Shown here piece by piece: positions 32,702 through 55,400 of a DNA stretch of 64,000 bases (position 1 is its first letter; each line of letters opens with the position of its first letter). Position numbers and translations under genes: made by a program. The DNA is taken from NCBI GenBank assembly GCA_965660855.1, contig CBFIBM010000001.1, positions 224,001-288,000 on the forward strand, read 5' to 3'. The notes beneath the pieces were generated by a model that was not told the origin of the DNA, ran no database searches, and saw only the letters and a program-made list of their open reading frames with translations. This DNA is from an uncultured bacterium (lineage in GTDB: Bacteria; Fidelibacterota; Marinisomatia; Marinisomatales; UBA1611).

Positions 32702-34021
32702 ATGATTGAATTCTTTAGAATATCAAGATTAATAATGTTTTTATTAATAGTGCGGTTTATCTCAGCTGCTGAGCCCTACGTAATCATTTACTTATTACCG
32801 TTTGATAATACTCAAAATGATCCTGCTTTAGAATGGATATCCCCAGGATTATCCGATATGACTAAGGAACAGATTAAAAGTATCTACGGAGTTAAAATAA
32901 AATCAAAAGAAGATTTAGAGATTATAATGAATGACAGATCTTTAATGTTGCAGCAGCCACGAGGATCAAGGAATTTACTTTTGTTGGGGAAATATAACCG
33001 AAAGCTTGATAAAGTTCATGTTACGATTCAACTTGTTGATGTAGCTAATTGGGAAGAGTTAGGAAAAACACACACTACTGAAGTATATACCAGAATACCT
33101 TCATTGAATAAAAGCGTTGGTGCATCAGTTATCCAAATGATAGAACCTTTTTTGCCCAAACCTCCAAAAACAAAAATATCTCCATTCCCAATGTATGCTA
33201 AGCCAGAATTACAAGATCAAAGAAATCCTGTGTCAACCCAAGCAGAAAAACTTGCTTCGGGCCTAGACAAACAGATAGCAGAACTAGAAGCTTCAATGGA
33301 TTATTTATTAGGTGCAAGAGAACGAAGAAAAGAAAAACCAAAAGTAGATGTTCCCAGGTTTAAATCAGGTGAATGGACAATGGATTTTGATGTTGATCGT
33401 AAGCTTAAGGACAATCCTGAAAATAATTCTAATACACAAATGCTAAGCAATGTATTAGATCAGTTGTTGACTAATCCTTATGAAGTTGAATTACAACGTC
33501 CAGAATTTGACTATCAGAAGGATGACGAATTGTACATGACAGTTAGGTTTCCTATAATATACAGGTTAAAGGATAAGATCTTAAAAGATATGTTATCTAG
33601 TCTGCCTTATACTGGGCTGCAACAAGATGGATCACTTACTGTTTTCTATTTTGACAGAACAAAGTTTAATTTTCCACAAAATCATGTGGAGTCAATAGCA
33701 AATGGTGATTTCAGAATTATCCCTGTTCTGAGGATTTTTGATGAAAATAGAAATACTTTAATCTTGGTGGCTGATACTCCAGAAAAATACTGGCATTCTA
33801 GGTCAAGCGATAAGGTTTATTACGTACCCCAACATCAATTTTCACCTCTTATTGATTTTACGGTTGGCGGTTGGTCTATTCAAGTTGCTATGGAGACTGT
33901 AGAAATTCAAGCCGTTTATGAATTTATATTACCTGTAAGTGAAATGGAATCCCTCAGTAATATTAGTTTGAAATTCATAAAAGAGAATGATTTAAGAGCT
34001 TTTCTTGATCCAATCCTTTGA
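32702..34021 (+). CDS. Secreted hypothetical protein (N-terminus resembles TolB_N/FlgO/CsgG-like fold)
   Basis: Signal peptide; LLPFDN...EWISPGLSDM pattern; coiled-coil-like segment. Confidence 0.5.
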   Translation: MIEFFRISRLIMFLLIVRFISAAEPYVIIYLLPFDNTQNDPALEWISPGLSDMTKEQIKSIYGVKIKSKEDLEIIMNDRSLMLQQPRGSRNLLLLGKYNRKLDKVHVTIQLVDVANWEELGKTHTTEVYTRIPSLNKSVGASVIQMIEPFLPKPPKTKISPFPMYAKPELQDQRNPVSTQAEKLASGLDKQIAELEASMDYLLGARERRKEKPKVDVPRFKSGEWTMDFDVDRKLKDNPENNSNTQMLSNVLDQLLTNPYEVELQRPEFDYQKDDELYMTVRFPIIYRLKDKILKDMLSSLPYTGLQQDGSLTVFYFDRTKFNFPQNHVESIANGDFRIIPVLRIFDENRNTLILVADTPEKYWHSRSSDKVYYVPQHQFSPLIDFTVGGWSIQVAMETVEIQAVYEFILPVSEMESLSNISLKFIKENDLRAFLDPIL

Positions 34022-34097
34022 AAATATAGTTGTTAAAATAAGGATTTATTACTATTTTCGGGATATATTTATTTATTCTGTAAGTGTAGGATTTTAG

Positions 34098-35231
34098 ATG
34101 AAAATACTTTTGTTAATTTTATTGTTAATGTCAAAAATTCAAGGACAGAAACTAGATGCAATTGACATTAATTTAAGAAACCTTAATGATGTCTTAGAAA
34201 CTGCACAAAGATCTTCTCAAAAAGTATTTGTTGACGATTTTACAGGCCTTTTGTGACCATACTGTCCCTCTGCGAGTTTCGCAATTTCAGAAATGTTAGA
34301 TTTATATCCAGAAACTTTGATTAGTGTCGAGTGGCACAGCTCAGGTTTTACTCCAGGAAATTCAGATTTTGATATACCAGCATATTCTACCAGGGCAGCG
34401 TTGTACAATGTAGGAGGTATTCCTCATACTCAATGGAATGGCGTTGTTTCAACTGTTGGTGGGTATCCAAATGGTAACTGGCAAGCCTTTATTGGAGAAT
34501 TTACAAATACCTATAATAGTATGGTTGGAGAAGAAACTCCATACAATATTGACATAAACGGTTACGCGGGTAATACTGTGAATTACGATGTTACGATTTC
34601 AATGGATTCTGATATGAGTAGCTCAAACCAGAAAGTTGATGTCTTCCTTGCTGAAGATAATATATGGTCTTATTGGAGCGGCGCAAGTTCATATCATAAT
34701 GCAAGATTTGTAGCAAGGGAATGGCTTTCTTCGGAGTATCTGAGTATCAGCAGTGCCGGCCAGAGTGAAACTTTTTCTGGTTCATTTGAATACAATGGAA
34801 ATTGGAATAGTGATAGCCTTTTTTTAATTGCTATTGTTCAAAACTATTCATCAAAACAAATTTATCAAGCCTCAAAAGTTAATATAAATGATATGGATCC
34901 GGATATTGATGATGATGGTATTTTGAATAATACTGATAATTGTATTGAAGATTACAATCCTCAGCAAGAAGATATTGATAACGATCAAATAGGTGATGCT
35001 TGCGATCCATGTAATAATTTAATTTATACTCTAGGCAACCCAAATGGTGATACAAATATCAATGGAGATCCCCTCATTGACATCATGGATGTCTTAACCC
35101 TTGTAGATTATCTTGCATTTGATCAAAATGAAAATATTTGCCAGGAACCAACTCTAAATATAAATCAAGATAATCATGTTAATATCGTTGATGTAATAAA
35201 TCTTGTTCAACTGATTCTTAATGGTGCATAA
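34098..35231 (+). CDS. Putative selenoprotein: signal peptide + Omp28-like thioredoxin fold (U53-P-Y-C) + TSP3 + dockerin-like domain, 377 aa
   Basis: Open frame from ATG 34098 (AGGA RBS): MKILLLILLLMSKIQGQ...KVFVDDFTGLL-TGA(34254)-PYCP, continuing in frame into track ORF 34293; hairpin 34271-34283. Confidence 0.85.
34271..34283 (+). promoter_or_regulatory. SECIS-like hairpin 1
   Basis: TGCGA-GTT-TCGCA; G-initiated loop 19 nt after TGA. Confidence 0.6.
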
Positions 35232-35733
35232 TTTCTTAATAAAACCACTATTAAAATTTGTTTTTTTTAGTTCAGTTTTCTTTTCTTTTGCTCTTGCAAA
35301 AAAAGTTCCTGATTTAAATATTAAACTTATTGATGGATCAAAGACTACAATTCTAGAGCTTGCAGAAGATGGTCCATTATTAATTGATTTTTGGGCAACT
35401 TGGTGTGTTCCATGCAAAAAAGTGATGAAACATTTAAATCAATTTCATCTAAAATATGATGATCAAAATTTTAAGGTTTTAATGATTAATACAGATAGTC
35501 CTAGGTCTTTTGGAAAAGTAAAATCATTTATAAGATCTCAAGATTATAAATTTTATGTAGGGTTAGATCCTAACCAAATTACAGCCAGAAAACTTGATGG
35601 ATTAGTTATGCCTACTCTTATTTTAGTTGATGCAGGTGGGGAAATAACTTGGAGACATCAAGGTTACTCACCAGGTGATGAAAAAGAAATTGAAAATCAG
35701 ATTGAATTATTACTAAGTAAAAATACTAAATGA
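35221..35733 (+). CDS. TlpA-family thiol:disulfide oxidoreductase
   Basis: Signal peptide, DFWATWCVPC, cis-Pro MPT. Confidence 0.9.
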   Translation: MVHNFLIKPLLKFVFFSSVFFSFALAKKVPDLNIKLIDGSKTTILELAEDGPLLIDFWATWCVPCKKVMKHLNQFHLKYDDQNFKVLMINTDSPRSFGKVKSFIRSQDYKFYVGLDPNQITARKLDGLVMPTLILVDAGGEITWRHQGYSPGDEKEIENQIELLLSKNTK

Positions 35734-37682
35734 TATCAAAATTATTTAGGCTTAGTAAGCTTATTTTTCTTTTATGTTTTTTAACAGCTCAAGACTTTAG
35801 TTATAACGCCTCTATTAATTCAAGTTTTGGAAATAGTTATGATTTTTATTCTTTTTCAGAAAATAGGATAAACATCAACTTATTTTACAATAACTTTCAA
35901 AGTTGGGTTCAATATGAATATTCAAACCCACCCGACGTAGGTTTTCCAATTAATGATATAAGAAAATTTCGATTTGAATATCAAAATAAAGCTTTAAATA
36001 TTAAACTTGGCGACATTTATGAAATTTGGGGTAGGGGTTTAGTTCTTAATCAATTCGATGATCAACTTTTAGATTTTGACAATGGAATAAGAGGACTTTT
36101 TATAAATTATGGTAAAGGTCCGTTTAGTTTAACACACATAAATGGTAATGCAAATTTATGGAGTTACGGTCTTGATTTAAGAAAACCATATTATAATGAT
36201 AAGCATAATGTTATAGCAAACAGACTCCTTTATGAAAAAGGTTCCACAGTATTAGGCTTGACACATTTGATTTCTAGTGAAGAGCATTCCAAGTTAAATT
36301 TAGATGTAGTAGATGTGGGGCATACAATTAAGGGTATTTACGGTGATTATTCTTCTAATAATTTTGATATTTTTTTAGAATATGTAGATAAGGTCTCAAT
36401 CTCTAAAAATATAGTTTCAAATAATTTTCCAAATGATACCCTCAAAACAGGGTATGGTTTATATGGTAATTTGAATTTTTACTTAGGATCTTGGGGTCTA
36501 ACTACCGAGTATAAAAATTATTCTTTTGATTCGTTTATTAGTGATAAAACTCCAGATGATTATGGAAATCAAATTCAATTTCAACAAATGCCAACTTTAG
36601 GTAAGGAGCATAATTCAACGCTACTTGGTAGACTTAGCCATTATTATAATTTTAATGATGAAAGAGGTGTACAGTATGAGTTAAATGGATCATTTATAGG
36701 ACTGTCAATTAACCTTCAATATGCTCATTTAAGTAGGAATGAACAATGGTTTTCACAAAATGGCCCGTTTTCTTGGACAAATAAGATTTTGAGATCAAAA
36801 TTACCTAGTACAAAAATTAATACTAACCCATACTATGAAAACTTCCAAGAATTAAGTGGCTATCTGTTTGAAGATAAACTCTTTTTTAAGATTGGCAGGG
36901 GAGCAAATAAAGAAGTTTTAGGAACAAATTGGTTTTTTAATGGGGTTCAAACAGACACCTCTTATAGTTTGAGTTTTGCTTATGATACAACCTATTCGCC
37001 ATATGCTCCTGATTATCCAATAATTACGGTTGATAGCCTATATGACACATCTTCTGTTAGTTATAATATAAAAGCAGAGAATTGGAGAGAGAGTCAATCT
37101 TTTACGATTCCTGTTGAATTAAATTATACTATGTCAAGTGGATACTCCTTCGGAGTTGGTTTTCAGTACCAGGAGAGAACTTTAAATGAAAAAAGAAAAG
37201 GAAATTCTCATTCATATAATGTTGGAAATTCAAAATGGAATTTAGTTAATCCAGATGATTCAGACTATAAATCTACTTTAATTATATCTCAACTCTCTAT
37301 AAATGGTAAACCTAGGAAAATCCAACATAATCGTCTATTATCATTTACTTTAAGTAAAGCGCAGAAATGGTCAGTTACTATTACACAAGATTGGACTGAT
37401 GCATATGAGGTCCAATCATCTGATCCTTATTATAATCCATTAGAGGCAATAGTATATGGTGATTTAAAATATTTTACTGGGAAAAGAAATAATGTTTCTC
37501 CTCCTTCATTTATTCAAAATAAATGGGTTTCGGCAGAAGTATCATATAACATTAATTCATCTCAAAAAGTTTCAATTTTTTATGGATCTATTCAAGGTGG
37601 CTTATTCTGTAATAATGGAATATGCAGAATTATACCTGCATTCAATGATGGTATAAAAGTTGGCTATTATTTCAGTTTATAA
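35730..37682 (+). CDS. DUF6029-like outer-membrane beta-barrel
   Basis: GDIYEIWGRGLVL, DNGIRG, EYKNY, C-terminal GGLFCNNGICRIIPAF and terminal amphipathic strand. Confidence 0.7.
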   Translation: MISKLFRLSKLIFLLCFLTAQDFSYNASINSSFGNSYDFYSFSENRININLFYNNFQSWVQYEYSNPPDVGFPINDIRKFRFEYQNKALNIKLGDIYEIWGRGLVLNQFDDQLLDFDNGIRGLFINYGKGPFSLTHINGNANLWSYGLDLRKPYYNDKHNVIANRLLYEKGSTVLGLTHLISSEEHSKLNLDVVDVGHTIKGIYGDYSSNNFDIFLEYVDKVSISKNIVSNNFPNDTLKTGYGLYGNLNFYLGSWGLTTEYKNYSFDSFISDKTPDDYGNQIQFQQMPTLGKEHNSTLLGRLSHYYNFNDERGVQYELNGSFIGLSINLQYAHLSRNEQWFSQNGPFSWTNKILRSKLPSTKINTNPYYENFQELSGYLFEDKLFFKIGRGANKEVLGTNWFFNGVQTDTSYSLSFAYDTTYSPYAPDYPIITVDSLYDTSSVSYNIKAENWRESQSFTIPVELNYTMSSGYSFGVGFQYQERTLNEKRKGNSHSYNVGNSKWNLVNPDDSDYKSTLIISQLSINGKPRKIQHNRLLSFTLSKAQKWSVTITQDWTDAYEVQSSDPYYNPLEAIVYGDLKYFTGKRNNVSPPSFIQNKWVSAEVSYNINSSQKVSIFYGSIQGGLFCNNGICRIIPAFNDGIKVGYYFSL

Positions 37683-37760
37683 AACCATTAATTGTTTCTT
37701 TTTATTAATTATCTTTTGAATTTTTCAGTTCCAAAAGTATATCGTGATATTTAAAATTAT

Positions 37761-38645
37761 GTGAAGAATTATATCTTAAGCATTCCTTTAGCAAAATTAA
37801 TTTTTATTCTATCTATTATTTTATCAAATACTATTTATCCTCAAATAGATATAGGTTCAATATCTCCTAATTTCACTGCTCCTGTATGCGCAAACGGTGA
37901 TCTCGAGTTATTCAACTTGTACCAACAAACTAATGGCAGTTTTAATGGTGGTGATTATAAAGTAGTATGGATCAATTTATTTACTTCTTGGTGACCAAGT
38001 TGCCAAGTGGAGGCTCCACTATCAGAAGAAATATGGCAAGAATATTTAAGCGGAGGGGAAGAAAAATTAGTTGTTATGGCAGCTGGGTTTGATTGGCATC
38101 AGCCTTATAGCTGTGAAGAATGGTCAACTGCATTTGGTATAACATACCTAATGGTAGATGATACAAATAATGAAGCATGGAATATTTATGGTGATGGCTA
38201 TATTCCGCATAATGTAGTGTTAGATCATAACATGCAGGTTCTATATACAAGTTCAGGATTTAACTCAAATGAAATAAAAGATGCAATCGATCTCGGCCTA
38301 TCTTATGTTCCAAGAGATTTAGATTTAGATGGAATTAATGATAACATAGATAACTGTGATGATATTTATAATCCTAATCAAGAGGATGTTGATGTAGATG
38401 GCATCGGTGATTTATGTGATAATTGCGATAACTATAATGTATTTATTTCTGGAAATACTGATGGTGGTTTAGTAAATGGAATTCCCATTTTAGATATTTT
38501 TGATGTGTTGAACCTAGTTGATATTGTTTTATTGGATGAATCTGGTACCTGTAGATCTGATATCTCAGATTTGAATTCAGATAATAATATTAATATTATT
38601 GATGTGATATTTCTTGTACAGGGGTTGTTAAATGGTGAATTTTAA
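37761..38645 (+). CDS. Putative selenoprotein: signal peptide + AhpC/TSA-TlpA-like fold (U78-P-S-C) + TSP3 + dockerin-like domain, 294 aa
   Basis: Track ORFs 37761-37994 and 38007-38645 are in frame, joined as LFTSW-TGA(37992)-PSCQVEAP; aligns with Cys paralogue IFTSWCGFCQTEA. Confidence 0.88.
38000..38039 (+). promoter_or_regulatory. SECIS-like hairpin 2
   Basis: AGTGGA-GGC-TCCACT (38006-38020), loop 17 nt after TGA; lower stem TTGCCA/TGGCAA. Confidence 0.7.
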
Positions 38646-38757
38646 ATTCAAAAACTTAGTTAAGATTTAAACAATAAAAAATATTACAATTTAACATTCA
38701 TAAATGTTGATGTTTTTAAAGATTTAGATTAGAATTTATATATATATTTCTACATTC

Positions 38758-41700
38758 ATGAATATTTTTAAAAAAATGACCTTCTTCCTTCTGTTTTTTT
38801 CCTTAATTAAAGGTCAAGGTGATTATTCATTTAAAAATATTTCAGTAGAAGATGGACTTGCTGAAAGTACTGTAAAGATAATCTATGAGTCAAAACAAGG
38901 TTTTTTATTTTTTGGAACTGAAAATGGTCTTGATATTTTTGATGGTTATAAATTTAAAAACTATCATATGGATTCATTCGATAATGAATCAATTCTTGGA
39001 AATAAAGTTTCAGCTATTTACGAATCAAGTAATAATTTGATCTGGGTAGGAAGTGAGCTAGGATTTAGTTCATTTAATCCTTCAACACAAAAATTCAAAA
39101 GACCGTCATTAAGTAATAATAATATTACAAATCCAGAAAAAATTACAGAAGATGAAAGTGGGAAAATCTGGATTAAAGAGGCTCAATCTAGCCGTTTATT
39201 TAAATATGATTTTAATAAAGATATTCTTGAATGTATTTCATGTGATCAAATGAGCATCCTTTTTAATCAAACCATAAATATTCTACACAAATCGAATAAA
39301 GGTGCTTTGTGGATTGGTACTGATAAAGGTCTTTATTTTTATGATATTAATGATAAATCTATCAGGCCGATTGAATCAAAATATTCCTTAAGCATTAATG
39401 AGCCATATTATATTACATCAATTGAAAATGGATCAGATTCCATTTTATGGATAGGAACAAAACAAGGTCTTATCAAAATTGAAGAAAATAATAAGAGTCA
39501 AATTAAGATTTTTAAGAATTCGGAGGTTGAAAATTCTATCGTTTCTAACAAGATAAATGATATTAAATGGGATAATCTTAGGAATGAGTTATGGATTTCT
39601 ACTGTGGATGGAATTTCAAAATATTCACCTGAACTAAATTCTTTTTCTAACATTCAAGTAGGTCCGTTTGCTAATAGCATAATAGAAAATGATGTTACGG
39701 ATATTTTGATTGCTGAAAAGTCTGGAACTTTATGGTTTAAAACCAGAAACCGCTTTGGAATAAATAGTTTTAAAGCAACATTCAATGAATTTGAGGGGCC
39801 GGATACTTCAATTATGCATTTTGAACATGATCCTATTGATCCATTTTCTATTGCTGACAATGATATAACAAATTTTATTGAGGATAGAGCTGGCCACGTC
39901 TGGATAGGAACACGACAAAATGGGATAAGCTTTTATTCATTTTTGAAGCCTAAATTCTCATTGCTTGAATATGATCAAGAAAATGAATGGGGCCTCAAAA
40001 GTAATAAGATTTATTCAATTACAACCGATTCTTATGGTATGATGTGGGTTGCAACAGGGTTTGGATTAGAAAATATTTCTTCGGATGGTATTAGAGATTT
40101 TGAATTTGAAAAATCTTTTATTGAATCCAACCATGTCATGGATTTAGAGTTAGTAAATGATCAATATTTATGGGCGGCAACTGAAAATGGAATTCTTAGA
40201 ATTGATGTATTATCAGAAGAAATTATTCGATTTAACACCTCTCAAAATGTTAATAAAAAAAGATTAATTTCTGATAATTTTATTAGAGACCTGCTTATAA
40301 CAAAAAATGGTTCTATTTGGGCGGGGACAAAATCAGGAATTACAATAATAGATACAGTTGATTTAAGTGCTGTCAGTTTTAGCTCAGATTTTACTGCTAG
40401 GGTATTATACCAAGACGAAAGTGAAAATATATGGATAGGAACAGATTATAATGGATTATATCAAATACCATATGAAATTATTTCTGATCTAAAAAAAGAA
40501 GATATTTTTGAAGTAGAGGGTCATGTTTTTGACTCAGAGTTTTCTGATGGTCTATCATCTTCACAAATAACCTCTATAACTCAAGATACGACTGGTGTTT
40601 TATGGGTTGGTACAGCTAGTGGTTTAAATAAGTATATTGAAAGTGAAGATACCTTCTATCATTATTTCATGAAAGATGGTCTACCTAGTAACTATATTAC
40701 GGGTGTTATTGTAGATCAAAGTAATAACCTGTGGATAAGCTCTAAGAACGGTATTTCTTTCTTTAATCAGAAAGACTCTTCTTTTATAAATTATGGGGTT
40801 TCCGATGGAATAGGGAATATTGATTTTCATCAACATTCTTTTGAAAAAAGTATTGATGGAAACATATATTTTGGTGGGCCAAAAGGAATAACTAAAGTAA
40901 ATCCCTCAAATTTACAATATAATGAATACAAACCTCCTTGTTCAATTCTACGCATTAAAAAAACACTTTATGATGGATCTATTACTGAAGTTTTTCCTCA
41001 AAAAAGTTCGAAACTAGAAATTCAAAAGATTAATATAAATCATAAAGTAAAATCATTCTCAATCGATTTTGTTGCTCTGAATTATCATAAAACTATAAAG
41101 AATGAATATAGATATAAACTTCAACCTTTTGATAGGAATTGGGTAGAATCGGGGAATATTAAATTTGCATCTTACAATAATTTAGGTAGAGGAGAGTATA
41201 CCTTTTTTGTGCAAGGATCTAACGATGATGGATTATGGAGTCAGTCTGCTGTTTTAGATTTTAAATTTATTCCTCATCCTCTTTTAAGTTATGGTGCTTT
41301 TGGAGTCTATCTTGCACTAATTATATTTGGTGTATACTGGCTAGTTAAACAAAGAATATTAAAACAGCAATCTGAGGCTGATGAAAAGAGAAGAGCCGAA
41401 GAATTAGAGCAAGCTCGGGAATTCCAGATGTCACTAATACCTCAAAATCCTCCTTCTATCAGCGGATTTGAATTTGCTTTGCATATGAAAACATCTACGG
41501 AGGTTGGTGGTGATTATTATGATTTTTTTCCTCAAAAAAATAATGTTCTTTATGTAGTTTGTGGTGACGCCACTGGGCACGGTTTAAATGCTGGTATGAT
41601 GGTTTCAATTACAAAAGCAGGATTATTCGGATCAGACTTTAGTAATCCAGGTATTACAACTACTAGGTTAAATCAAACAATAAAAGCTATTGATCTTGGA

Positions 41701-42105
41701 ACAACAAGGATGTCTTTGAATATGGCTAAGTTTGAAAATGAATCCTTTGAGTTTACATCAGCTGGTATGCCTCCTGCATATTTATTTCGTGGTGAAACAA
41801 AGGTTGTAGAGGAAATTTTAATTCCTGGTTTGCCTCTGGGGTCTATGAAAAATGCTACATTTGATTCTGAGATATTTGAATTTAAAATAGATGATGCGTT
41901 AATCTTAATTTCAGATGGACTTCCTGAATGTGTTGACCATAAAGATGAAATGTTAGATTATGATGCAGTAAAGAACTGTATTGAAAAAAATGGGCATAAA
42001 TCAGCAAATGGCATTAAAGATGCCTTGATAAAATTGGGTGATGACTGGATGGACGGTCTAATGAATGATGATGATATAACATTGGTAATTATAAAGAGGA
42101 AATAG
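38758..42105 (+). CDS. Membrane sensor phosphatase: two-component-regulator beta-propellers + Y_Y_Y + TM + SpoIIE/PP2C domain
   Basis: Repeated DxxGxLWIGT, YRYKL...ASYNNL..GEYTF, TM, EVGGDYYDF, GDATGHG, SDGLPE, DDITLV. Confidence 0.88.
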   Translation: MNIFKKMTFFLLFFSLIKGQGDYSFKNISVEDGLAESTVKIIYESKQGFLFFGTENGLDIFDGYKFKNYHMDSFDNESILGNKVSAIYESSNNLIWVGSELGFSSFNPSTQKFKRPSLSNNNITNPEKITEDESGKIWIKEAQSSRLFKYDFNKDILECISCDQMSILFNQTINILHKSNKGALWIGTDKGLYFYDINDKSIRPIESKYSLSINEPYYITSIENGSDSILWIGTKQGLIKIEENNKSQIKIFKNSEVENSIVSNKINDIKWDNLRNELWISTVDGISKYSPELNSFSNIQVGPFANSIIENDVTDILIAEKSGTLWFKTRNRFGINSFKATFNEFEGPDTSIMHFEHDPIDPFSIADNDITNFIEDRAGHVWIGTRQNGISFYSFLKPKFSLLEYDQENEWGLKSNKIYSITTDSYGMMWVATGFGLENISSDGIRDFEFEKSFIESNHVMDLELVNDQYLWAATENGILRIDVLSEEIIRFNTSQNVNKKRLISDNFIRDLLITKNGSIWAGTKSGITIIDTVDLSAVSFSSDFTARVLYQDESENIWIGTDYNGLYQIPYEIISDLKKEDIFEVEGHVFDSEFSDGLSSSQITSITQDTTGVLWVGTASGLNKYIESEDTFYHYFMKDGLPSNYITGVIVDQSNNLWISSKNGISFFNQKDSSFINYGVSDGIGNIDFHQHSFEKSIDGNIYFGGPKGITKVNPSNLQYNEYKPPCSILRIKKTLYDGSITEVFPQKSSKLEIQKININHKVKSFSIDFVALNYHKTIKNEYRYKLQPFDRNWVESGNIKFASYNNLGRGEYTFFVQGSNDDGLWSQSAVLDFKFIPHPLLSYGAFGVYLALIIFGVYWLVKQRILKQQSEADEKRRAEELEQAREFQMSLIPQNPPSISGFEFALHMKTSTEVGGDYYDFFPQKNNVLYVVCGDATGHGLNAGMMVSITKAGLFGSDFSNPGITTTRLNQTIKAIDLGTTRMSLNMAKFENESFEFTSAGMPPAYLFRGETKVVEEILIPGLPLGSMKNATFDSEIFEFKIDDALILISDGLPECVDHKDEMLDYDAVKNCIEKNGHKSANGIKDALIKLGDDWMDGLMNDDDITLVIIKRK

Positions 42106-42116: not shown

Positions 42117-42683
42117 ATGATAAAAAATACAATTAGAATAATCTATTTGCTTATGTTTCTTTCACTTGGATATTCTCAAGAAAAAATACCAAACTTGAGA
42201 CTTAAAATGTTGAATGGAAAATATGCAAAAGTAAATGATTTTTTAAAAGATGGACCAATGATTATAGATTTTTGGGCTACTTGGTGTGAGCCATGTAAGA
42301 AACAGATGAAATATCTTAATATATTTAATAATCATTTTAAGGAAACTGGATTTAAAGTACTTGCTGTTAACACTGATACACCTAAAAGTATGAGTAAGGT
42401 TAAATCTTATGTCAGAACAAAAAAGTTTGAGTTTGACGTTGCAGTGGACCCGAATAGTCAGGTTAAAAAGAAAATGAAGGTTTTGCAAATGCCTACAACT
42501 ATTTTAGTTGATAAAACTGGACAAATAGTTTTTAGACATCAAGGATATTTACCTGGCGATGAACATGATATTCTTCAAGCTATTTATGGTTTAATGGATA
42601 AAAACAATACTAGTTATGAAAAACTTGATTTGAATAAGAACAATAAAAAACAAATTAAATCCGGTGCTGAAGTTGATTTTTAA
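42117..42683 (+). CDS. TlpA-family thiol:disulfide oxidoreductase (paralogue of 35221)
   Basis: DGPMIIDFWATWCEPC, MPT, RHQGY. Confidence 0.9.
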   Translation: MIKNTIRIIYLLMFLSLGYSQEKIPNLRLKMLNGKYAKVNDFLKDGPMIIDFWATWCEPCKKQMKYLNIFNNHFKETGFKVLAVNTDTPKSMSKVKSYVRTKKFEFDVAVDPNSQVKKKMKVLQMPTTILVDKTGQIVFRHQGYLPGDEHDILQAIYGLMDKNNTSYEKLDLNKNNKKQIKSGAEVDF

Positions 42684-44946
42684 TAAGCAAATAATTGTAT
42701 CATTCATATTGATACTTAGTAATTCAGATTTATTTTCCCAAATAACAGCTGGTGGGAACTCTATTCTAAAATTTGGCGAGAGTAAAAATGAATTTCACTA
42801 TTCAGAGGTTTTGCTGAATATGAACTTATCAAATGATTATTTGGAGACTTGGTTTCAATTCGAATACAGCAAACCACCTGAGATTGGGATGAGTATTAAT
42901 GGTCTGAGAAAATTTAGGATTGACTATTCTGATGGCCCTTTCGAATTATCTGTTGGAGATATATATAAAATTTGGGGGAGGGGGTTAATATTGAACCAGT
43001 TTGATGATCAGGATGTAAATCTTGATAATGGTTATAGAGGATTAAGTTTCAGTATAATAAAAGATAACTATACCATTGATTTAATATCTGGAATTTCAAA
43101 TATACATAGAATTAGTCAAGATTACTGGCAAAATATAGATCAAGAATCAAGAAAGCCAAATCATTTATCAAAACATTCTATGTTTGGTAGTGATTTAGAG
43201 TTTTTTCAAGGACCTTTTTCTCTAGGTTTATCCTTTCTTCAAAGTAGAGAGAATCATCCCATCAATAATCCGATCACGATGATGGCAGATAGTATTAATG
43301 TAATTCATCGAATAAATGGTTTAAGAGCCGGATATGAAGGCGGGCGTCTCGCCTCCTACTTAGAATTATCTGGAAAAAATACGCTATTATCTCAATCCGA
43401 AAGTCAAATATATAAGGAAAATTTTAATCCTTATAATGGCTTCAGTCTTTTTGGAAATATTAATTATTATTTTCAAAGTCAGCTTCTAGACGGATGGTCA
43501 TTAACAATGGAGTATAAAAACTACAATACAACAAAATTAAATACATCAGATAAAGACAATTTTGTTAAAAATTATGATATGAATTTAATTTTTACTCAAC
43601 CCCCGACTGTTTTAAGGGAACATAGCAGTGTATTTTTAGCTAGACTTATTCCTCAGGTAAATTTCAGCGATGAAGTAGGTTATCAATTTTCTCTTGTTGG
43701 TCCTATTATGGGGATAGGGTATTTTACTCTCAACTATCAAGCCGCAAGTAGAACAAACTTATGGGGTAAAACATACCCAGATACTGTAAATGCTATATTA
43801 TCTACTAAATGGGAAAGTGATAGTGCAGTTACCGTATTGCCATTCAGTGAAAAATCCGGACTGCCATACAATGAACTTTATCTTGAAATGGAAGGTTACA
43901 TAAAAAATATTAGGTATCAATTTGGCTTTGGTATCACAAACAAAATACCTGAATATCATTCGTCGTATAATAGTGGAAAGAATGGTGTCTGGGATAATGG
44001 TGAAGCGTTTGATGATTTAAATGGCAATAATATTTATGATATTGGAGAAAATTTTACTGATCTTTACAGTATAGTAAATGAAAAAATTGATAATAAAACT
44101 GTTACAGCCATTACAATACCTTCTCTTCTAAATTATAATTTAGGAAATGGGTGGAGTATTGATTTAAAATATGAATTTCAAAAGATTAAAAGTGGTACAA
44201 AATATTATAATTCATTGTCCTCTGATGAAGTATTCTATGATAGTAATGGAAATGGTGTTTGGGATATTGCAGAGTTATTTGAAGATAGTAATGGTGATGG
44301 TATTTGGAACCAAGCTGAAGAGACATGGTATGATTTATGGCAAAGTGGTTTAATACCCGATGAACAATTATACTACTATGATACTGACGGCGATGGTTTA
44401 TTTTCGGAGGGAGAATATTTTACTGATGCTGATGGAAATGGCATGTGGAATTCATCAGAAAACTTAATTGATGAAGATGGTGATGGAATATGGGATGATT
44501 CAGAGTATTTGGAGGATCTAAATAATGATGGAGTCTGGACAAAAAGTGGAGTGTATGAAGATAGGTATCAATCTAATTTTTATTCAAATGATTCAAAAAG
44601 TGGGTTGAGTATTCCTGAAGATTTTCAAAATAATCATCTGATATCACTCGGAATAGGAAAATCGCCTTATTGGTCACTATCTTTAACGGTTGAATCAAGT
44701 TCAACCTATGAATATGGTCCATTAAAAAATAGTGTTGTTAATCCTCTAGAGAGTTTCTTAGGTAATATTATTGATTTAAATAATAAGTGGATTGCTTTAG
44801 AATTTATGGTGAATATAAATTCAAATACTAGGCTCGATTTAATGTACGGTACGCAAAGGGGAGGGATTATTTGCAGTAATGGAATTTGTAGGTATGTTGA
44901 ACCTTTCGATGATGGATTTAAATTAGCGTTATCAACAGTATTTTAA
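42664..44946 (+). CDS. DUF6029-like outer-membrane barrel with inserted Ca-binding-like DxNGDGxWD repeats
   Basis: GDIYKIWGRGLILNQFDDQ, C-terminal QRGGIICSNGICRYVEPF...TVF. Confidence 0.7.
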   Translation: MLKLIFNKQIIVSFILILSNSDLFSQITAGGNSILKFGESKNEFHYSEVLLNMNLSNDYLETWFQFEYSKPPEIGMSINGLRKFRIDYSDGPFELSVGDIYKIWGRGLILNQFDDQDVNLDNGYRGLSFSIIKDNYTIDLISGISNIHRISQDYWQNIDQESRKPNHLSKHSMFGSDLEFFQGPFSLGLSFLQSRENHPINNPITMMADSINVIHRINGLRAGYEGGRLASYLELSGKNTLLSQSESQIYKENFNPYNGFSLFGNINYYFQSQLLDGWSLTMEYKNYNTTKLNTSDKDNFVKNYDMNLIFTQPPTVLREHSSVFLARLIPQVNFSDEVGYQFSLVGPIMGIGYFTLNYQAASRTNLWGKTYPDTVNAILSTKWESDSAVTVLPFSEKSGLPYNELYLEMEGYIKNIRYQFGFGITNKIPEYHSSYNSGKNGVWDNGEAFDDLNGNNIYDIGENFTDLYSIVNEKIDNKTVTAITIPSLLNYNLGNGWSIDLKYEFQKIKSGTKYYNSLSSDEVFYDSNGNGVWDIAELFEDSNGDGIWNQAEETWYDLWQSGLIPDEQLYYYDTDGDGLFSEGEYFTDADGNGMWNSSENLIDEDGDGIWDDSEYLEDLNNDGVWTKSGVYEDRYQSNFYSNDSKSGLSIPEDFQNNHLISLGIGKSPYWSLSLTVESSSTYEYGPLKNSVVNPLESFLGNIIDLNNKWIALEFMVNINSNTRLDLMYGTQRGGIICSNGICRYVEPFDDGFKLALSTVF

Positions 44947-45015: not shown

Positions 45016-45909
45016 ATGAAAAAATTCATTTTAAAGTTTTTTATTTTATTTTCTATAACATTTCCCTCATTTGTTATATGTCAGGGTCAAATTATACAAG
45101 ATTTTTCCTACCCAATTTGTGCTAATGGTGATGGTGAAACAGTTTTAAATTTTTATGAATCATTCAACGGATCAGTAAACAATTGTGAGTATAAAGTAGT
45201 TCTTGCTACACTTTTCACCTCCTGGTGACCATCCTGTATGACGGAGGCTCCGGTTCTAGAAGAAATATTTAACACCTACAAAGATCAAGGATTAGAAGTT
45301 GTTGCATTTGGAGCCGACTGGTATCCTGATGGACCCTATACTTGTGAAGGGTGGGATCAACAATTTAATCTTTCTTACCCAATACTTGATTTTGAGACAG
45401 GATTAGAAAATTGGTATTGGGAGTCAGCTCCGTATGATTTATACCAGCCCGAGTTAGGTTGGGGGTTACCTTTTAATGTAATAATAAATCATGAGATGGA
45501 AGTTTTATGGGGTGCAGCAGCCAACTTTGAGGGTGATGTAATGGCTGAGGCTATAGGTGTTATTGAATCAGCTCTCCAAGCGTTGAATGAAGAATTTCCC
45601 GATGGTCCAGGGGATGATGATGGAGATGGAATAGCAAATGGTTGTGATCCTTGTCCAGAATCTCATTTACACCATCCTGGAAATTTTGATTTTTCTCAGG
45701 TTTATTCACATTTTGATAATGGTGCAGTCTTTGTACCATCTGTAGATATTTTTGATTTAATACTATTTTCAGATTATATAATGGATGGTGGCTACCTAAC
45801 TGATTGTATCTTAGAGGCGCACGATATTACCGGGGATGGTTATGTCAATCCTTTCGATGTTATAGCATTAGCTCAATTAATTCTTGGAAATGATTGGGGT
45901 TTAAATTAG
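45016..45909 (+). CDS. Putative selenoprotein: signal peptide + AhpC/TSA-TlpA-like fold (U71-P-S-C) + TSP3-like + dockerin-like domain, 297 aa
   Basis: Track ORFs 45016-45228 and 45238-45909 are in frame, joined as LFTSW-TGA(45226)-PSCMTEAP. Confidence 0.88.
45242..45252 (+). promoter_or_regulatory. SECIS-like hairpin 3
   Basis: CGGA-GGC-TCCG, loop 17 nt after TGA; same GGAGGCTCC core as hairpin 2. Confidence 0.65.
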
Positions 45910-45931: not shown

Positions 45932-46855
45932 ATGAAATTATTTTATCATATTTTTCAGAAGAGTATTATTATTTTTGTTTTAATTTATACTTCTACCACT
46001 TCAGAAATGCAAGGTCAGGTAGCTGTAGGTGACACTATAAACCCTTCTCAATTAAGTTTACCAATTTGCGCTAATCAAGAACCCTTTGGCCCTTCAGAGC
46101 AATTTTTTGATATTTCGATTTATAATAACCCAGATCAAGATTCACAATCAAAAGTAATTTTACTTTCTATTTTTACATCATGGTGCGGATTTTGTCAAAC
46201 TGAAGCTACACACTTACAAGATTTACATACTGAATTTGCCGATGATGGATTGTTAGTTGTTTCAGCTGGAGGAGATTGGGGTTTTCCATATGATTGTGAG
46301 GGTTGGTCTAATGAATTTGATTTAAGTTATCCAATATTAGATTTTATGAATCCCTTTAATCCTAATTGGGGAGAAGCGCCATTAATGACCTATTTAGGAG
46401 TAGCTGCAATACCCTTTAATGTAATTATAGATCATAGGAACATAGTCTCAAATATTATAATAGGATATAATGAGGAAATATTGAACCTAGCTATTGAAGA
46501 TGCTCTTGAAGCAATGATTCAAGATAGTGATGGTGATGGAATTAATTCTGAAGCAGATAACTGTCCATCAATATTCAACCCAGGTCAATCTGATTTTGAC
46601 GGTGATGGCATAGGAGATGTCTGCGATGCTTGTGATAATCTTAATATATTTGTTAACGGAAATCTTAATGGTACATTAAATCTTGATCAAGAACCAACCA
46701 TTGATATTCTAGACTTATTGTTACTGGCCGACTTCCTTGAGGGATTACCAGATCAAAATATCTGTCATGAGGCTGCCTCTGATATTAATGAGGATTCTAA
46801 TATAAATTTACTTGATGTATTTTCACTTGCCTATCAAATTACTGGGCAAAATTAA
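45932..46855 (+). CDS. Secreted thioredoxin-fold protein (CGFC) + TSP3 + dockerin-like; Cys paralogue
   Basis: IFTSWCGFC; DSDGDGINSEADNC; IDILDLL and DINEDSNINLLDV. Confidence 0.85.
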   Translation: MKLFYHIFQKSIIIFVLIYTSTTSEMQGQVAVGDTINPSQLSLPICANQEPFGPSEQFFDISIYNNPDQDSQSKVILLSIFTSWCGFCQTEATHLQDLHTEFADDGLLVVSAGGDWGFPYDCEGWSNEFDLSYPILDFMNPFNPNWGEAPLMTYLGVAAIPFNVIIDHRNIVSNIIIGYNEEILNLAIEDALEAMIQDSDGDGINSEADNCPSIFNPGQSDFDGDGIGDVCDACDNLNIFVNGNLNGTLNLDQEPTIDILDLLLLADFLEGLPDQNICHEAASDINEDSNINLLDVFSLAYQITGQN

Positions 46856-47001: not shown

Positions 47002-47916
47002 TTGTTAAAAAAAAATTTTAAAAAAATAAATTACCTCAAAGTATTTACAATACTTTTATTGCAATCATTATTATATAGTCAAATTGCAATTGGTGATACT
47101 GTCTTTAATCTGCAATTACCAATATGTGCTAATTCTGATCCTGATATTCACGAACAGCAATATTTTGATATAAATGATTATAATGGTTTTCCCGAAAGTA
47201 CTATCAGCCCAAGGGTAATTCTTCTTGCAATCTTTACTTCATGGTGTGCGTATTGTCAAACTGAAGCGTTCCTTTTAGAAGATTTACATGAGGAGTATAT
47301 TGATGATGGATTATTGGTCCTTTCTGCTGGTGGTGATTGGGGCTTCCCATATGATTGTAGTGGTTGGGCAAATTCATTTAATTTAACTCATCCAATATTA
47401 AATTTTATGACAACTAATGTGGAAAGTTGGGAAGATGCTCAATTGATAAACTATTTGGGAGTTGGTATTGTACCACATGCTGTTGTAATTGATCATCGAA
47501 ATATTCTTTCAAACACCATTGTGGGTTATAATCCTAATGCTTTGAATCAAGCTGTTGAAAGTGCGCTTGAAACAATGGCTCAAGACCTTGATGGTGATGG
47601 AGTTTTATTTGATGATGATAATTGTCCTTCAATTCATAACCCAGAACAAATAGATATTGACAATGATAACCTTGGTGATGAATGTGATTTATGTGATAAT
47701 CTTAATAATTTTGTAATTGGCAATCTAAATGGTACACTAGATCAATTTCAGCAAGCAACCATTGATATTTTTGATTTATTGTTATTAACTGATTTTTTAG
47801 ATAATTCTTACGAGAATAATGTATGCTCTAACGCTGTATCCGATATTAATGGTGATAATTCTATAGATCTAATTGACGTATTTACGCTTGCTTATATTAT
47901 TTCAGAACAAAATTAA
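47002..47916 (+). CDS. Secreted thioredoxin-fold protein (CAYC) + TSP3 + dockerin-like; Cys paralogue
   Basis: IFTSWCAYC; DLDGDGVLFDDDNC; DINGDNSIDLIDV; close paralogue of 45932. Confidence 0.85.
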   Translation: MLKKNFKKINYLKVFTILLLQSLLYSQIAIGDTVFNLQLPICANSDPDIHEQQYFDINDYNGFPESTISPRVILLAIFTSWCAYCQTEAFLLEDLHEEYIDDGLLVLSAGGDWGFPYDCSGWANSFNLTHPILNFMTTNVESWEDAQLINYLGVGIVPHAVVIDHRNILSNTIVGYNPNALNQAVESALETMAQDLDGDGVLFDDDNCPSIHNPEQIDIDNDNLGDECDLCDNLNNFVIGNLNGTLDQFQQATIDIFDLLLLTDFLDNSYENNVCSNAVSDINGDNSIDLIDVFTLAYIISEQN

Positions 47917-49413: not shown

Positions 49414-52400
49414 ATGTATAAATCATATAATTCTAAGTATTTATCTGTCGTATTATTCCTGTTTTTTCAGTCGGGTTTGATATTTGGACAAGCTATTGAT
49501 TTTTATCCTGCTGGTCAAGTAGCAGATGGTGATAATATTTACAATATTAATTCAACAGTTGCAACTAATGGTCCTTTTTCTGGGTCAAATGCCGGTGGAG
49601 TATGGGTAACGGGATCAAGTCTTGAATACACTTCATGGGATGTTCAAATACAATTTGATGGTGGGGCGTTTACTACTATAAACGGTGATGGTTCAAATGA
49701 TGATAATGCCTCTGCTAATGGGCAAAGTTTTGGAAGTGCAACTGTTCGCCCAACTGCTGATGGTGATCTTAATATCTGGTTTAGTCATGCAGAGATTGCG
49801 GCCACCTCAGGTTATCCTGGAACTGTTGATGGGATTAACATCTCATTTAGAATAAGAAAAGTAAGTGATGGTAGTACATTACCAACTTCGCCACAAGATT
49901 ATGCCTTTGATTTAGTTGCTCCGACTCTTACTTCTGCCAGTATAGCTTCAGATAACGATAATACAAGTTGGGCTAAGTCTGGCGACAATATTACCATAAC
50001 GTTAACTGCACCAAGTGGAAGTGACGGAGAAAATTTAGGTACCTCAGATCAATGGTCAACATCAATTCAGGGTCTTGGTGCTTCTGTATCAGGTTCAGGG
50101 CTTGTTTGGACTGTCTCAGCAACTGTAAGTAGTCATCCGGAAGGGACTGTTTATTTTCAAATAACATATTACGATGCATATGAAAACCCAGGAACTGTAC
50201 TAACCGCTGTAGTGGGAAATACTTCACAAGTAATAATAGATAAGACTCCCCCTAATATTTCAGCTACAATTCTATCAGATGATAATACAAATAATACACA
50301 ATATTTAGCGACTACTGGTGACGACGTTACTTTAACAATTACTGCAACTGATGATGATGGAGGTGCAGAGATTATTCAAGTTCCAACCGTAACTATTGAC
50401 GGAAATACTCCTACTGGAAGTAATCTTTCTGTTCCAGCTAGTTCCTACACTGCTTACAGAACGATGCAAGCAGGTGATACGCAAGGAGATGTTGGCTTTG
50501 CAATTACTGGTATAAAAGATAGAGCCGGTAATACGGCTACCAATGTAACTGCTGTTACATCTGGTAGTAATGTTCGGTTTGATTCAGCTGTTCCAACAAT
50601 AAATTCTCTCACAGTTGCATCAAATAACGCCATTGCGAGTAATAAAGCTACCATAGGAGATGTTATAACTATTTCCTTTGCATCAACTGGTAATGAATCT
50701 TTACAAACTCCTGTTGTTACTATCGATGGTGAAGATGCGCTTGAGCAACAAAATGGGAATGCTTATACTTGGACAGCAACAAAAACAATGGATGCGGAAG
50801 ATACGGAGCGACTTACGCAGTTCTCATTGAATTTTAAAGATTTAGCTGCTAACAGTGGTACCGCTTTAGATCATGGTGATATTACAGCTGGTACACTTGT
50901 TGATTTTGACGCAACGCCTCCAACAATTAATTCGGAAACTGCTTCCACCACAAATTCCTACGATAACACGCTAGCAATTTTAAATCAGGTCATCTCTATT
51001 GATATTGTAAGTGCTGAAGAACTCTATAGTATTAAGGATGTTCTTATCGCAGGGAAAGCGGTAGCTGATCAAGTGACTGCAGCAACAAATGTAACAGATT
51101 GGACTATAAATCATGTAGTGGATGGTACGGAAGCGGATGGGTATGTTGGTTATTCTTACACAGCTGTTGATTTAGCTGGAAATGAGACAAATGTAGTTAA
51201 ATCAAGTAGTAGTATTCGTATCGATAACTCAAAACCAGTGCTAAATACAGTTACCATTATTTCAAATAATACAAATACTGCTTACGCAAAAATTGGTGAT
51301 GTTGCTACGATAAATATTGTTGCAAATGAGGCTCTCCGCATTAGCCCTGTTGTTTCGATTCAAGGGAGAACTGCGACTATCGCTGCTGCAGGAGATGGCA
51401 TCACCTTTACAGCAACTCATACCTTTGATAATACTGATACTGAAGGTCTCGTAGCTTTTCAAATTGATTTTGAAAATGCTTTTGGACTTGCTGGAGACAG
51501 AATTATTGATGATGGTACAGGTTCCACAACTAATAATGGCGCAACCGTAAGGTTTGATAGAACAGCTCCTACATTAAACCCTGTTACTGTAACATCAAAT
51601 AATAATAATTCTTCATATGCGAAAGTAGGTGATATTGTTACGTTATCTTTTACTTCTATTGAAGCGATTCAAGATCCACCAACAGTCGTTTTCCTAAGCA
51701 CACCGGGAGATAATCGAGCTGGGACTGTTTCTGGAAGTGGTACAAGTTGGAATGCAACATATACTATGCAAAACTCTGATACAGAGGGAGATGTTGATTT
51801 TTACATTGATTTTGTTGATATCGCGGGGAATACGGGTGTAAGAGAAACAAGTCTTTCATCTGGAAGTGAAATTATTTTTGATCGTGATATACCCGAACTC
51901 ACAACTGTAGATATATCCTCGAGTAATGCAAATCCAGCTCTATCAAAAGTTGGTGATGTTATAACCTTAGCTATTACTTCAGATGAAGATATTCAGATAC
52001 CGACTGTTACTATTGCAGGAACCACAATAGCTAGTGAAAATATTACCGGTAATGATGGTGAAAGAAACTTCACAGCTACATATACGATGCAAAGCTCAGA
52101 CAATACAACAGCTGCTATTGGTTTTACAATTGATTTTGCAGATCTTGCAAATAATTTAGGAACTCAAAAAACAGCTATAGTAAATGATGGAGATGGACTT
52201 GGAGTTGGTTTTGACAAACAGGCGCCAGGTTTAAATATTGTTACTATACTTTCGAATAATGATAATAGAGCAGGAACAGGAAATAAAACTGGTTTAGCAA
52301 TAGTAAATGATATCATCACTTTAAACTTTGAGTCAGACGAAGATTTAAAAACTGGAGTGACTCCGGCTGTCCTTATTGCGGGAAATGCTGCAACGGTTGT

Positions 52401-55400
52401 TCGTAATGCAAATAATGATTTTACTGCCACTTATCAAATGGCATCAGATGATGACACAGATGGAGCTAATATTACTATTTCTATTTCTAACCTTGTTGAC
52501 CCATCTGGGAATACTCCTGCTAGTGCAATAACAACAACTACTGATGGTTCGTATGTTAAATTTGATAAAACAAACCCAATCTTGGGTTCTATTACTATTG
52601 CATCTAATAATTTAAATAATACACTTGCTATCGAGGGTCAAGTTGTTACATTGACTTTTGCATCTAGTGAAGATATCGGAACACCAACTGTGAATATCTT
52701 GGGTGGTGCTGCTACAGTTACTAATGTTGCAGACTCAAGTAATTGGGTTGCCACAAAAACTGTTGGTGGCGCTGATAGCGAGGGTGTAGTAGGATTTAGT
52801 ATTGCTTATTCTGATAAGGCAGGAAATAACGGAACGACGAGAACTGATTTAACAGGCGGAGGTGATCCTGTTACTGTTGATCTAACAGTACCTCAAATTA
52901 CCAAAGCTTCTATAGCTACAAATAATTCCACAGGCGATGAATTATCGGTTCCTGGTGATGTCGTAACTCTTGAAATAGAGACCTCAGAGGCTATTCAGAC
53001 ACCGACTGTTACTATTGCCACACAAACAGCTACTGTAAGTCAAGGTGCAGATGCATTAACGTGGACAGCCACATACGCGATGACAACAAATGAATCAAAT
53101 GGAGCAGTTCCTTTCGCAATTGATTTTACGGATCTTTCCGGAAACCAAGGAAATGGTGGGGCTTCCTATACCGCCTTACTAAATGACGATGATGGAAACT
53201 CTGTCAGTTTTGATAAAACTCAGCCAGAGTTAGATTATGTAAATATACAATCAGATAATACTTTGCCTGCTTATGCTAGAGTTGGATCTGAAGTAACTTT
53301 AGGGTTCGAGTCTAACGAAGCATTAAGCTCATATGCTGTAACTATTAATGGAAATACAGTTGCAGTTTCTTATGATGCTGTTGCAGATAGATATAGCGCT
53401 GCATATACCTTAGTTGACGGAGATTCGGAAGGGGATGTTACGTTTACAATTGATTATACAGATTTAAATGGTTATCAGGGCGTTCAGCAAACGGAAACTT
53501 TAGATGATTCTAATGTAGAGTTTGATAAAACTCCTCCACAGATGGATGTACTCACTTATTCTTCAAATAATGCAAATATGACATCAATGGCAAAAGAAGG
53601 AGATGTTATTACTGTAAATCTTGAAGCGGATGAAAATTTACAATCTCCAACTATTACCCTAGCAGGAAATGCTAGCGGAACTCCAGTTGTTGGAGGTACA
53701 AATGCTATTTGGAGTTCGGCTTACACTGTTCCATCTCTGTCTGATGGTGTTGTTGCATTGCAAGTTGATTTTAAAGATTATGCAGGTAATTCTGGTACTA
53801 GGCAGGTTGCGCCGTTGACAGGATCTGCTGTGACCTATGATGGTACTGCTCCGACACTTGGAACAGTAACCTTTGTAAGTAATAATAGCTATTCAACTGC
53901 AAAAGCAAAATTATTTGATGAGGTAACTCTTACAATTGCTGCAGATGAAAGCATTCAAACACCAACTATTACAATTTCAGGGACTTCTATAACTCCAACG
54001 ATGGGACTAAATTCTGAAAATTGGGTTGCTACATACATTTTACAAGAATCCGACGCAGAAATAGATATTCCATTTACTGTAGATTTTAATGATTTAGCTG
54101 ATAACGCTGGAACTCAAGTAATTGCTACTACCGGTGGTGAGGTCGTTAATTATGATAATACAGCTCCTGTAACTACCGGACTTGTTGTTGATTTGAAAGA
54201 TGCATCGGACACAGGGTTATCAAATAGCGATAATATCACAACTGTTTTAACTCCTACATTTGAAATTCAAAATTTAACATCAGGTCCTGCTTCTGCGACA
54301 GGAGAGAAGTTAATTCTTAATATTAATGGCACGGACTATGATTCTCTGACAATCACTGTTAATGCAATGAGTATATCTGTCCCTGATGCAACCCCGCTTA
54401 CAAATAATGTACTTCCCTATACGGTGACAGCATATATAAGAGATCTTGCTGGTAATTTATCTCTTGCATCCACATCCTCTATTTCATTAACAATTGATAC
54501 TGAAGCACCATTAACAAATGCTGAAATAAATCTTGTTGATGGGTCAGACTCCGGATCTGATAATGCTGATAATATTACAAGTGACAATACGCCCACTTTA
54601 GAAGTGAATGGATTAGCTGATGGAGAGATTTATACTGTTATTGTTGAATATGATCTTGAAGGTGGTGCATCTGACCAAGTAGTTGTTAATGATCTTATGA
54701 GTCAAGCAGTAACGGATCAATTTACTACAACCGCATTAAGTGATGGGGTTTATACTTTTACGTATAAATTGGTAGATACAGCGGGAAATACTTCATTGGA
54801 AAGTGATCCTCTTGCAGTAACAATTGACCGAACACAACCTGCAATATCAAGCGCTCCTGATCTTGTTGATGTGTTTGATACAGGTACTCTAGATAGCGAT
54901 AATCTTACAAATCTCGAAAATCTTCAATTTAGTGTATCAAATTTAGTTGTGGGTGAAACCTTAACAATATATAACGATGCTGATGATAGTGTCTTAGGTA
55001 GCAAAACAATAACAGCAGTAACAGAGACTATTACGATAAATGGTTTTACGGAAGGTGCACATACTGTTTACGCACGACTAACAGATTTAGCAGGAAACCA
55101 GTGTGGTGAATCTGGAGCACTTAGTTTTACTGTAGATATAACTGCAATCGATGTTACTGGTATTACTCTCGATCTAAATACTGCAGATGACTCTGGTACT
55201 AGGTCTGATGACGATCTTACAAATATTAACACACCAACTTTTACATTAGCAACGGTCTCTATTAATGATATCGTACATCTTTACGCAGATGGCAGTTTAG
55301 TTGGTTCAGCAACTTCTATTGGATCATCAGTTGAGGTAACAAGTAGCACGCTAGTTGATAATCCGTATGAAATGAGTTTTACCGTGACAGATTATGCTGG

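Follow-up and report, generated by a model that had tools for sequence, protein, structure and literature searches.

An Omp28-related UxxC selenoprotein of the GOS_C family and its conserved reductase–barrel neighbourhood in a SAR406 genome

The selenoprotein family GOS_C was predicted by Zhang and Gladyshev on the basis of 74 Sec and 312 Cys sequences (PLoS Genet, 2008; PMC2398784), and the accessible text of that study gives no known function for it. Table 1 of a recent review lists ‘hypothetical protein GOS_C’ as NF045500 (PMC13188914, 2026), the NCBIfam profile named ‘Omp28-related selenoprotein’, so the family has to be regarded as already known. Our literature search found no paper in which ‘Omp28’ and ‘selenoprotein’ occur together. 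One paper that joins Marinimicrobia and selenocysteine mentions the phylum, in its accessible text, just as one entry among the genomes that were reconstructed, and another, as far as its accessible text goes, places SAR406 single-cell genomes under ‘orphan SelD’. Two further groups of proteins, both with Cys where GOS_C has Sec, provide the closest structural comparisons. HBP35 of Porphyromonas gingivalis (5y1a) is a surface protein that has been reported to act as a thioredoxin in vitro and to bind hemin (PMC2907840). The other group is Omp28 (PF11551, NF033782, 2r2c).

Here we describe a gene at positions 34098..35231 of a 64,000-nucleotide stretch of DNA (the window) from a genome of Candidatus Neomarinimicrobiota (SAR406; 2.09 Mb in 81 contigs, 84% complete). 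The gene is a typical member of the GOS_C/NF045500 family, with which its product shares the UxxC motif, the thioredoxin-like fold and a single Sec, with no difference at the level of the family; its detection from the DNA is a correct rediscovery. We consider it very likely that UGA-53 of this SAR406 GOS_C selenoprotein is decoded as selenocysteine and that the product would act as an exported, two-domain selenol/thiol-disulfide oxidoreductase. What this analysis may add to the known GOS_C family is a description of its domain anatomy, of covariation in a GUU-loop SECIS, of its secretion tails and of a conserved TlpA–DUF6029 neighbourhood. The recoding and the family are established, and the conserved cassette of reductase, barrel and selenoprotein is the only fresh angle.

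The gene, like its two downstream partners and the redoxin-type selenoprotein genes described below, is on the forward strand. Its frame starts at ATG 34098, with AGGA at 34088-34091 separated from it by a 6-nt spacer, contains one in-frame TGA, and closes at TAA 35229-35231, which gives a complete gene of 377 codons plus stop. The TGA (34254..34256) is codon 53 and supplies the first residue of a U-P-Y-C redox motif, the peptide across it reading KVFVDDFTGLL-U-PYCPSASF. Gene calling under table 11 splits the gene into a 52-aa ORF (34098-34256) and a 312-aa ORF (34293-35231), the latter being its truncated 3′ part, downstream of the TGA. Residues 1-16 (34098..34145) were recognised by eye as a signal peptide, with predicted cleavage before Gln17 and no lipobox. 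A reading of the sequence alone had held that the ORF at 34293 lacks its N-terminus and that the true start, with a ribosome-binding site and a signal peptide, is ATG 34098, upstream of a single TGA within KVFVDDFTGLL-U-PYCP. The frame and the AGGA agree with this start, an MK followed by a hydrophobic run and then ..QG/Q fits the signal peptide, and the TGA was found exactly there. A scan of 33800-38800 for promoters and terminators gave no excess over shuffled sequence (28 promoter-like sites vs 32.1, and two terminator-like sites vs 1.6), and therefore no transcription unit has been drawn from it.

The readthrough product of 377 amino acids matches NF045500 (cut-off 200 bits) with a score of 562.6 bits and E 5.1e-169. 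The alignment joins residues 6-375 to profile positions 4-377 of 377, so the match spans the TGA, and a search of the genome with the same profile returned the gene at 556.1 bits with the remark ‘1 TGA’. The sequence-only reading had called for a profile match across the TGA and had classed the protein as Omp28-type. The former was obtained; the latter holds in the sense of the full-length NF045500 match, but not for Pfam Omp28 (PF11551), which scored 27.3 bits, below its threshold of 34.9, over residues 133-264, that is over the beta-sandwich only with the redox motif outside the match. NF033782, the profile for Omp28 family outer-membrane lipoproteins, gave 44.9 bits against a cut-off of 150.

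The domain structure was examined with an AlphaFold2 model built from a 42-sequence alignment (mean pLDDT 89.6, pTM 0.71). In the model, a helix following the signal peptide precedes a thioredoxin fold of beta-alpha-beta-alpha-beta-beta-alpha topology at approximately residues 39-142 (34212..34523), which is also found by profile and by Foldseek; its strands are at residues 43-49, 74-80, 110-113 and 117-120, and its helices at 56-69, 95-102 and 129-142. U53-P-Y-C56 lies between strand 43-49 and the start of helix 56-69. A cis-proline has a role in thioredoxin-fold enzymes, and Pro109, invariant in the alignment, occupies the equivalent place. The second domain, at approximately residues 149-262 (34542..34883), is an Omp28-type beta-sandwich, identified by the weak PF11551 match, the model and Foldseek. 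It is followed by thrombospondin type-3 (TSP3) calcium-binding repeats at approximately residues 266-310 (34893..35027; Pfam and PDB profiles) and by a dockerin-like C-terminal module at approximately residues 316-377 (35043..35228), in a tail common to four other proteins of the window. Searches against PDB profiles matched the TSP3 structure 2rhp over positions 272-309 (E 1.8e-26), the thioredoxins 1nho (E 7e-6) and 1fo5 over residues 45-130, HBP35 (5y1a, E 6e-5) and Omp28 (2r2c, E 0.03). The likeness to dockerin is weak, with PDB profile E values of 0.002-0.5 over positions 316-380 (6kg9 being the best, E 0.002) and no Pfam dockerin match at E <= 1. The product may accordingly be pictured as a UPYC thioredoxin fold packed on an Omp28-type beta-sandwich, trailed by TSP3 repeats and a putative dockerin-like module.

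The best Foldseek match of the model is HBP35 (5y1a; E 5.5e-12 over 253 columns, target TM 0.57, identity 17%), followed by Atu2684 (2axo), the Omp28 domain 2r2c (E 1.9e-4, target TM 0.70) and thioredoxins. HBP35 and the window protein both combine a thioredoxin-like domain carrying a redox motif with a beta-sandwich and export, but HBP35 has Cys and a C-terminal domain of the type IX (T9SS) secretion system, whereas the window protein has Sec and the TSP3/dockerin-like tail. The sandwich resembles Omp28, weakly by sequence (PF11551) and by structure (2r2c); in contrast to the Omp28 lipoproteins, the protein misses both curated cut-offs, has no lipobox, carries Sec in place of Cys and has the additional C-terminal tail.

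The resemblance to HBP35 raises the question of whether this protein, while a true selenoprotein, serves mainly to bind or capture a ligand such as haem or a metal at the surface, the UxxC motif being metal-binding or structural. HBP35 is the best structural match and has been reported to bind hemin as well as to act as a thioredoxin (PMC2907840, in its accessible text). Three residues of the sandwich (E186, D187 and R207) are invariant, and in a single homologue (P0053) the redox pair is gone, D..S standing in place of U..C. However, the protein shares only 17% identity with HBP35, the U/C..C pair and the position of the cis-Pro hardly vary in the alignment, and the neighbouring genes encode thiol-disulfide oxidoreductases. 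A predominantly ligand-binding role is, in our view, unlikely.

The locus holds Sec in a second thioredoxin-fold family. A second selenoprotein gene (37761..38645) encodes a protein of the Redoxin/AhpC-TSA type, with TGA 37992-37994 in FTSW-U-PSC and the same TSP3 and dockerin-like tail. A third, also of the redoxin type with FTSW-U-PSC, extends from ATG 45016 to 45909 (45016..45909), with its TGA at 45226-45228; table 11 shows just a shortened part of it, the ORF 45238-45909. These two genes confirm the suggestion made from the sequence alone that Sec is used by two distinct families at one locus, and bring the number of Sec genes in the window to three, all lying within 12 kb. The third is followed by two Cys paralogues (45932-46855 and 47002-47916) with SWCGFC and SWCAYC and the same dockerin-like tail. 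In homologous loci the TGA of the redoxin-type genes recurs together with a downstream hairpin with a GGC loop, the outer pairs of which, judged by eye, change together. The redoxin-type proteins have the UxxC logic and the C-terminal tail in common with the Omp28-related one, but belong to a different thioredoxin-fold family (AhpC/TSA-Redoxin, W-U-P-S-C) and are without the Omp28 sandwich. Both fall within the Sec-containing redoxin/thiol:disulfide interchange proteins listed as ‘Redoxin family protein, PF08534, UxxC’ (Table 1 of PMC13188914). Elsewhere in the genome, outside the window, a redoxin-type ORF (G000:C1:122879-126250, locus L020) has a TGA in FATW-U-GGC and a similar downstream hairpin. 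Altogether the genome has at least four genes for exported UxxC selenoproteins, besides a selD gene with a TGA.

The abundance of AhpC/TSA- and Redoxin-family proteins at the locus suggests another role for a true selenoprotein, that of an envelope scavenger of peroxides or other oxidants, peroxidase-like rather than a disulfide reductase. Sec at UxxC sites raises reactivity towards peroxide, which adds to the appeal of this proposal. A CPYC-type motif in this kind of fold is, on the other hand, typical of disulfide exchange by glutaredoxins and thioredoxins and unlike the peroxiredoxins; the fold of the window protein and the CPYC found in Cys forms agree with the former, and no peroxidatic-site residues were identified in the window protein. 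We therefore think a peroxidase improbable, and favour a selenol/thiol-disulfide oxidoreductase. In such an enzyme the selenolate of Sec53 would be the nucleophile that attacks the disulfide of a substrate, or else some other oxidised species of sulfur or selenium, while Cys56 would resolve the intermediate formed with Sec53.

These functional considerations presuppose that the TGA is read as Sec. The genome carries a complete set of genes for this purpose. A tRNA-Sec was found at 63.3 bits (cut-off 47), which ARAGORN likewise reports as tRNA-SeC with the anticodon TCA; selA (494.2 bits) and selB (303.4 bits), both above their cut-offs, are adjacent on contig 16; and selD, at 388.9 bits also above its cut-off, is itself a gene with one TGA (G000:C19:7427-8353). 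NF045500 was searched in 61 genomes, namely the source genome and 60 relatives from its family and order. Matches above the cut-off were present in 27 of the 61 genomes, and 61 of the 64 distinct matches had exactly one TGA; the remaining three comprise one match that a contig end truncates just past the Sec position and two Cys forms (G020:C16 and G006:C69) with DFTGAH(L/Y)-C-P-Y-C. Among the motif-bearing ORFs of the fetched loci (L018-L081), 68 of 69 have U at the Sec column, the sole exception being a distant, lipoprotein-type Omp28 paralogue from the source genome (L025) with EFTGSWCGYC. That the TGA might be a peculiarity of this assembly, which the sequence-only reading had named as the outcome that would speak against it, is answered by both counts.

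Some of these loci had been retrieved from the same genomes by two routes, and deduplication left 46 distinct segments of 48 nt and 50 distinct segments of 123 nt. The TGA is invariant in all 50 of the latter. Their entropy at codon positions 1, 2 and 3 is 0.63, 0.49 and 1.48 over the 20 codons that lead up to the TGA and 0.58, 0.36 and 1.19 over the 20 that come after it. The third position thus varies alike on both sides, which argues that translation continues across the TGA. Cys forms with CTYC, CYYC, CTFC or CPYC at the Sec column (P0131, P0136, P0144, P0149, P0129 and P0138) make up six of the seven fetched protein-library matches that reach the N-terminus; the seventh has W there, evidently a code-4 translation.

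Bacterial SECIS elements are judged by their distance from the UGA and by a G in the apical loop. A SECIS-like hairpin of 5 bp with a GUU loop, UGCGA-GUU-UCGCA, lies at 34271..34283, its stem beginning 17 nt after the U of the UGA, and is kept at this distance in all 46 distinct sequences. Over the five core pairs, 229 of 230 cells are paired, although the sequences are related and include paralogues, so that independent events are fewer than cells. Pair 18-30 is CG in 30 sequences, UA in 12, UG in two, AU in one and unpaired in one; pair 21-27 is GC in 36 and AU in 10, where the change from GC to AU may be a single event; pair 20-28 is CG in 42 and UG in four; and the two other core pairs are invariant. 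Compensatory changes are thus seen at two pairs. The columns that covary fall on third codon positions (Ser, Ala, Phe and Ala), and the changes are therefore synonymous and occur in concert. AGT, the Ser codon from which the G and first U of the loop derive, is invariant (50/50) despite the availability of six Ser codons. Of the two close Cys forms that retain the SFA peptide (n = 2), one has a single mismatch in the stem and the other has two. Additional outer pairs, 16-32 and 17-31, can form in 12 and six of the 46 sequences, and lie outside the conserved element. Folding of the single sequence over the 60 nt after the TGA gave -7.3 kcal/mol (z -0.37), a value reached by 68 of 200 shuffles, so that the evidence for a SECIS comes from the alignment. 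Rfam at gathering thresholds reported three tRNAs over the whole window and nothing at TGA 34254. We propose that SelB and tRNA-Sec would decode UGA-53 under the guidance of this minimal GUU-loop hairpin approximately 17 nt downstream.

A conventional gene call takes TGA 34254 as a true stop, leaving either a pseudogene or two genes, one for a 52-aa peptide and one for a 312-aa protein from ATG 34293. Table 11 splits the frame in this way, and 118 of 120 listed database relatives are truncated calls of the same kind, which start after the Sec codon and span no more than 79% of the query region; the energetically unexceptional hairpin would also suit such a reading. Against this, the 50 distinct sequences all keep the TGA together with 20 preceding codons whose conservation has the signature of coding DNA, a start at Met66 would cost the thioredoxin fold its first beta-strand, the redox motif and helix 1, the Cys forms run without interruption through the Sec column, and the Sec machinery of the genome is complete. 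A true stop is, on this evidence, very hard to credit. That TGA encodes a standard amino acid (Trp in code 4, Gly in code 25), so that residue 53 would not be Sec, is almost certainly wrong: the depositors' pipelines put W at the TGA column of P0011 and P0191, it seems by use of the wrong code, and the genome is AT-rich (31.8% GC), but TGA terminates 10 of the 42 window ORFs and occurs in frame in none of their remaining 19,585 codons, one ORF of 4247 aa included, against 276 TGG, which excludes codes 4 and 25, while the TGA falls exactly where a CxxC motif has its first Cys, in a genome with tRNA-Sec and selA, selB and selD. On these comparative grounds we conclude that UGA-53 is decoded as selenocysteine. 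This corrects an annotation, as calls that start past the Sec codon lack the active site.

As for the location of the selenoprotein, a small residue followed by Gln marks the end of the signal peptide in 41 of 50 homologues, and a lipobox is found in none of the 50, nor in the window protein. An NCBIfam profile search found no T9SS type A sorting domain (TIGR04183) in the window protein. In two homologues this domain replaces the TSP3 and dockerin-like tail, at 42.5 bits in L076, a Sec form from another Neomarinimicrobiota genome, and at 40.6 bits in P0136, a protein-library entry with Cys (cut-off 23). SprA, the translocon of the T9SS, is present in the source genome itself as fragments at the ends of contigs, together with 78 T9SS tails above the cut-off. 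Because of the signal peptides, the T9SS-tailed homologues and the SprA and T9SS tails of this genome, the NF045500 family is likely to be extracytoplasmic, probably at the surface, and by analogy with its homologues the same may be expected of the window protein. It would be exported via the Sec pathway with cleavage of its signal peptide, and the TSP3/dockerin-like tail probably holds it at or outside the outer membrane. The window also encodes a protein of 4247 aa (49414-62157) that has a T9SS sorting tail (61888-62139) and seven Ig-like stretches of the Big_13 type. We considered whether it might offer cohesins as a scaffold to the dockerin-like tails and rejected the idea, as Pfam gives Big_13 and the T9SS tail and no cohesin.

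The genes that follow the selenoprotein gene form a cassette with it. The first (35221..35733) encodes a TlpA/ResA-like thiol:disulfide oxidoreductase with WCVPC, and its start overlaps the stop of the selenoprotein gene. The second (35730..37682) encodes a DUF6029 protein, which is predicted to form a large beta-barrel in the outer membrane and has invariant Cys627 and Cys632. In the DUF6029 alignment these two cysteines lie in GLFCSNGVCR, and the C-terminus, SYSASF, ends in Phe. The model of this protein is of low confidence (pLDDT 61.8), with a signal helix and then a long run of beta-strands, and Foldseek places it alongside TonB-dependent receptors at a TM of about 0.4 and an rmsd of 10-21 Å, a likeness of general large-barrel shape only. 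A similarity of DUF6029 to Wzi-type barrels by HHpred is noted in PMC9603273. Across 27 related loci, the selenoprotein gene has a DUF6029 homologue beside it in 20 and a TlpA1-like gene in 17, and several of the 27 have two to four Sec paralogues in tandem.

Other genes of the window are worth recording here. A second pair of TlpA-like and DUF6029 genes lies at 42117-44946 (DUF6029 gene 42664-44946). Between the two redox cassettes sits a gene (38758-42105) for a protein of 1115 aa with Reg_prop/Y_Y_Y propeller repeats and a SpoIIE-type phosphatase domain, a position that is kept in locus L074. Directly upstream of the selenoprotein gene lies one for a 439-aa protein (32702-34021), an arrangement conserved at 21 of the 27 related loci. 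The protein has no Pfam or NCBIfam match, and the Atlas provided only weak leads, with CsgG/LpoB-like clusters at 0.87 and, at 0.95, a ‘FlgO domain’ cluster that is probably the one to which the protein itself belongs.

Judging by gene neighbourhood, the co-encoded TlpA-like periplasmic reductase may recycle the selenoprotein, and the adjacent DUF6029 outer-membrane barrel would be a member of the same conserved cassette. A more ambitious proposal is that the cassette constitutes a trans-envelope redox relay, made up of the periplasmic TlpA-like reductase, the DUF6029 barrel with its Cys pair and the exported Sec proteins. On the cell surface there would be one to several Sec thioredoxin-fold proteins, with TSP3/dockerin-like or T9SS tails, and reducing power from the periplasm would reach them through such a relay. 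We offer this as a speculative and rather improbable arrangement.

In conclusion, the SAR406 genome studied here invests selenium in exported redox proteins, and a family that has been without a known function since 2008 now has an anatomy and a neighbourhood of reductase and barrel that yield testable ideas. If the relay should prove to exist, outer-membrane electron transfer by thiols and selenols would be a new kind of system, by which SAR406 cells would reduce or remodel disulfide-bonded or oxidised extracellular substrates in sea water.
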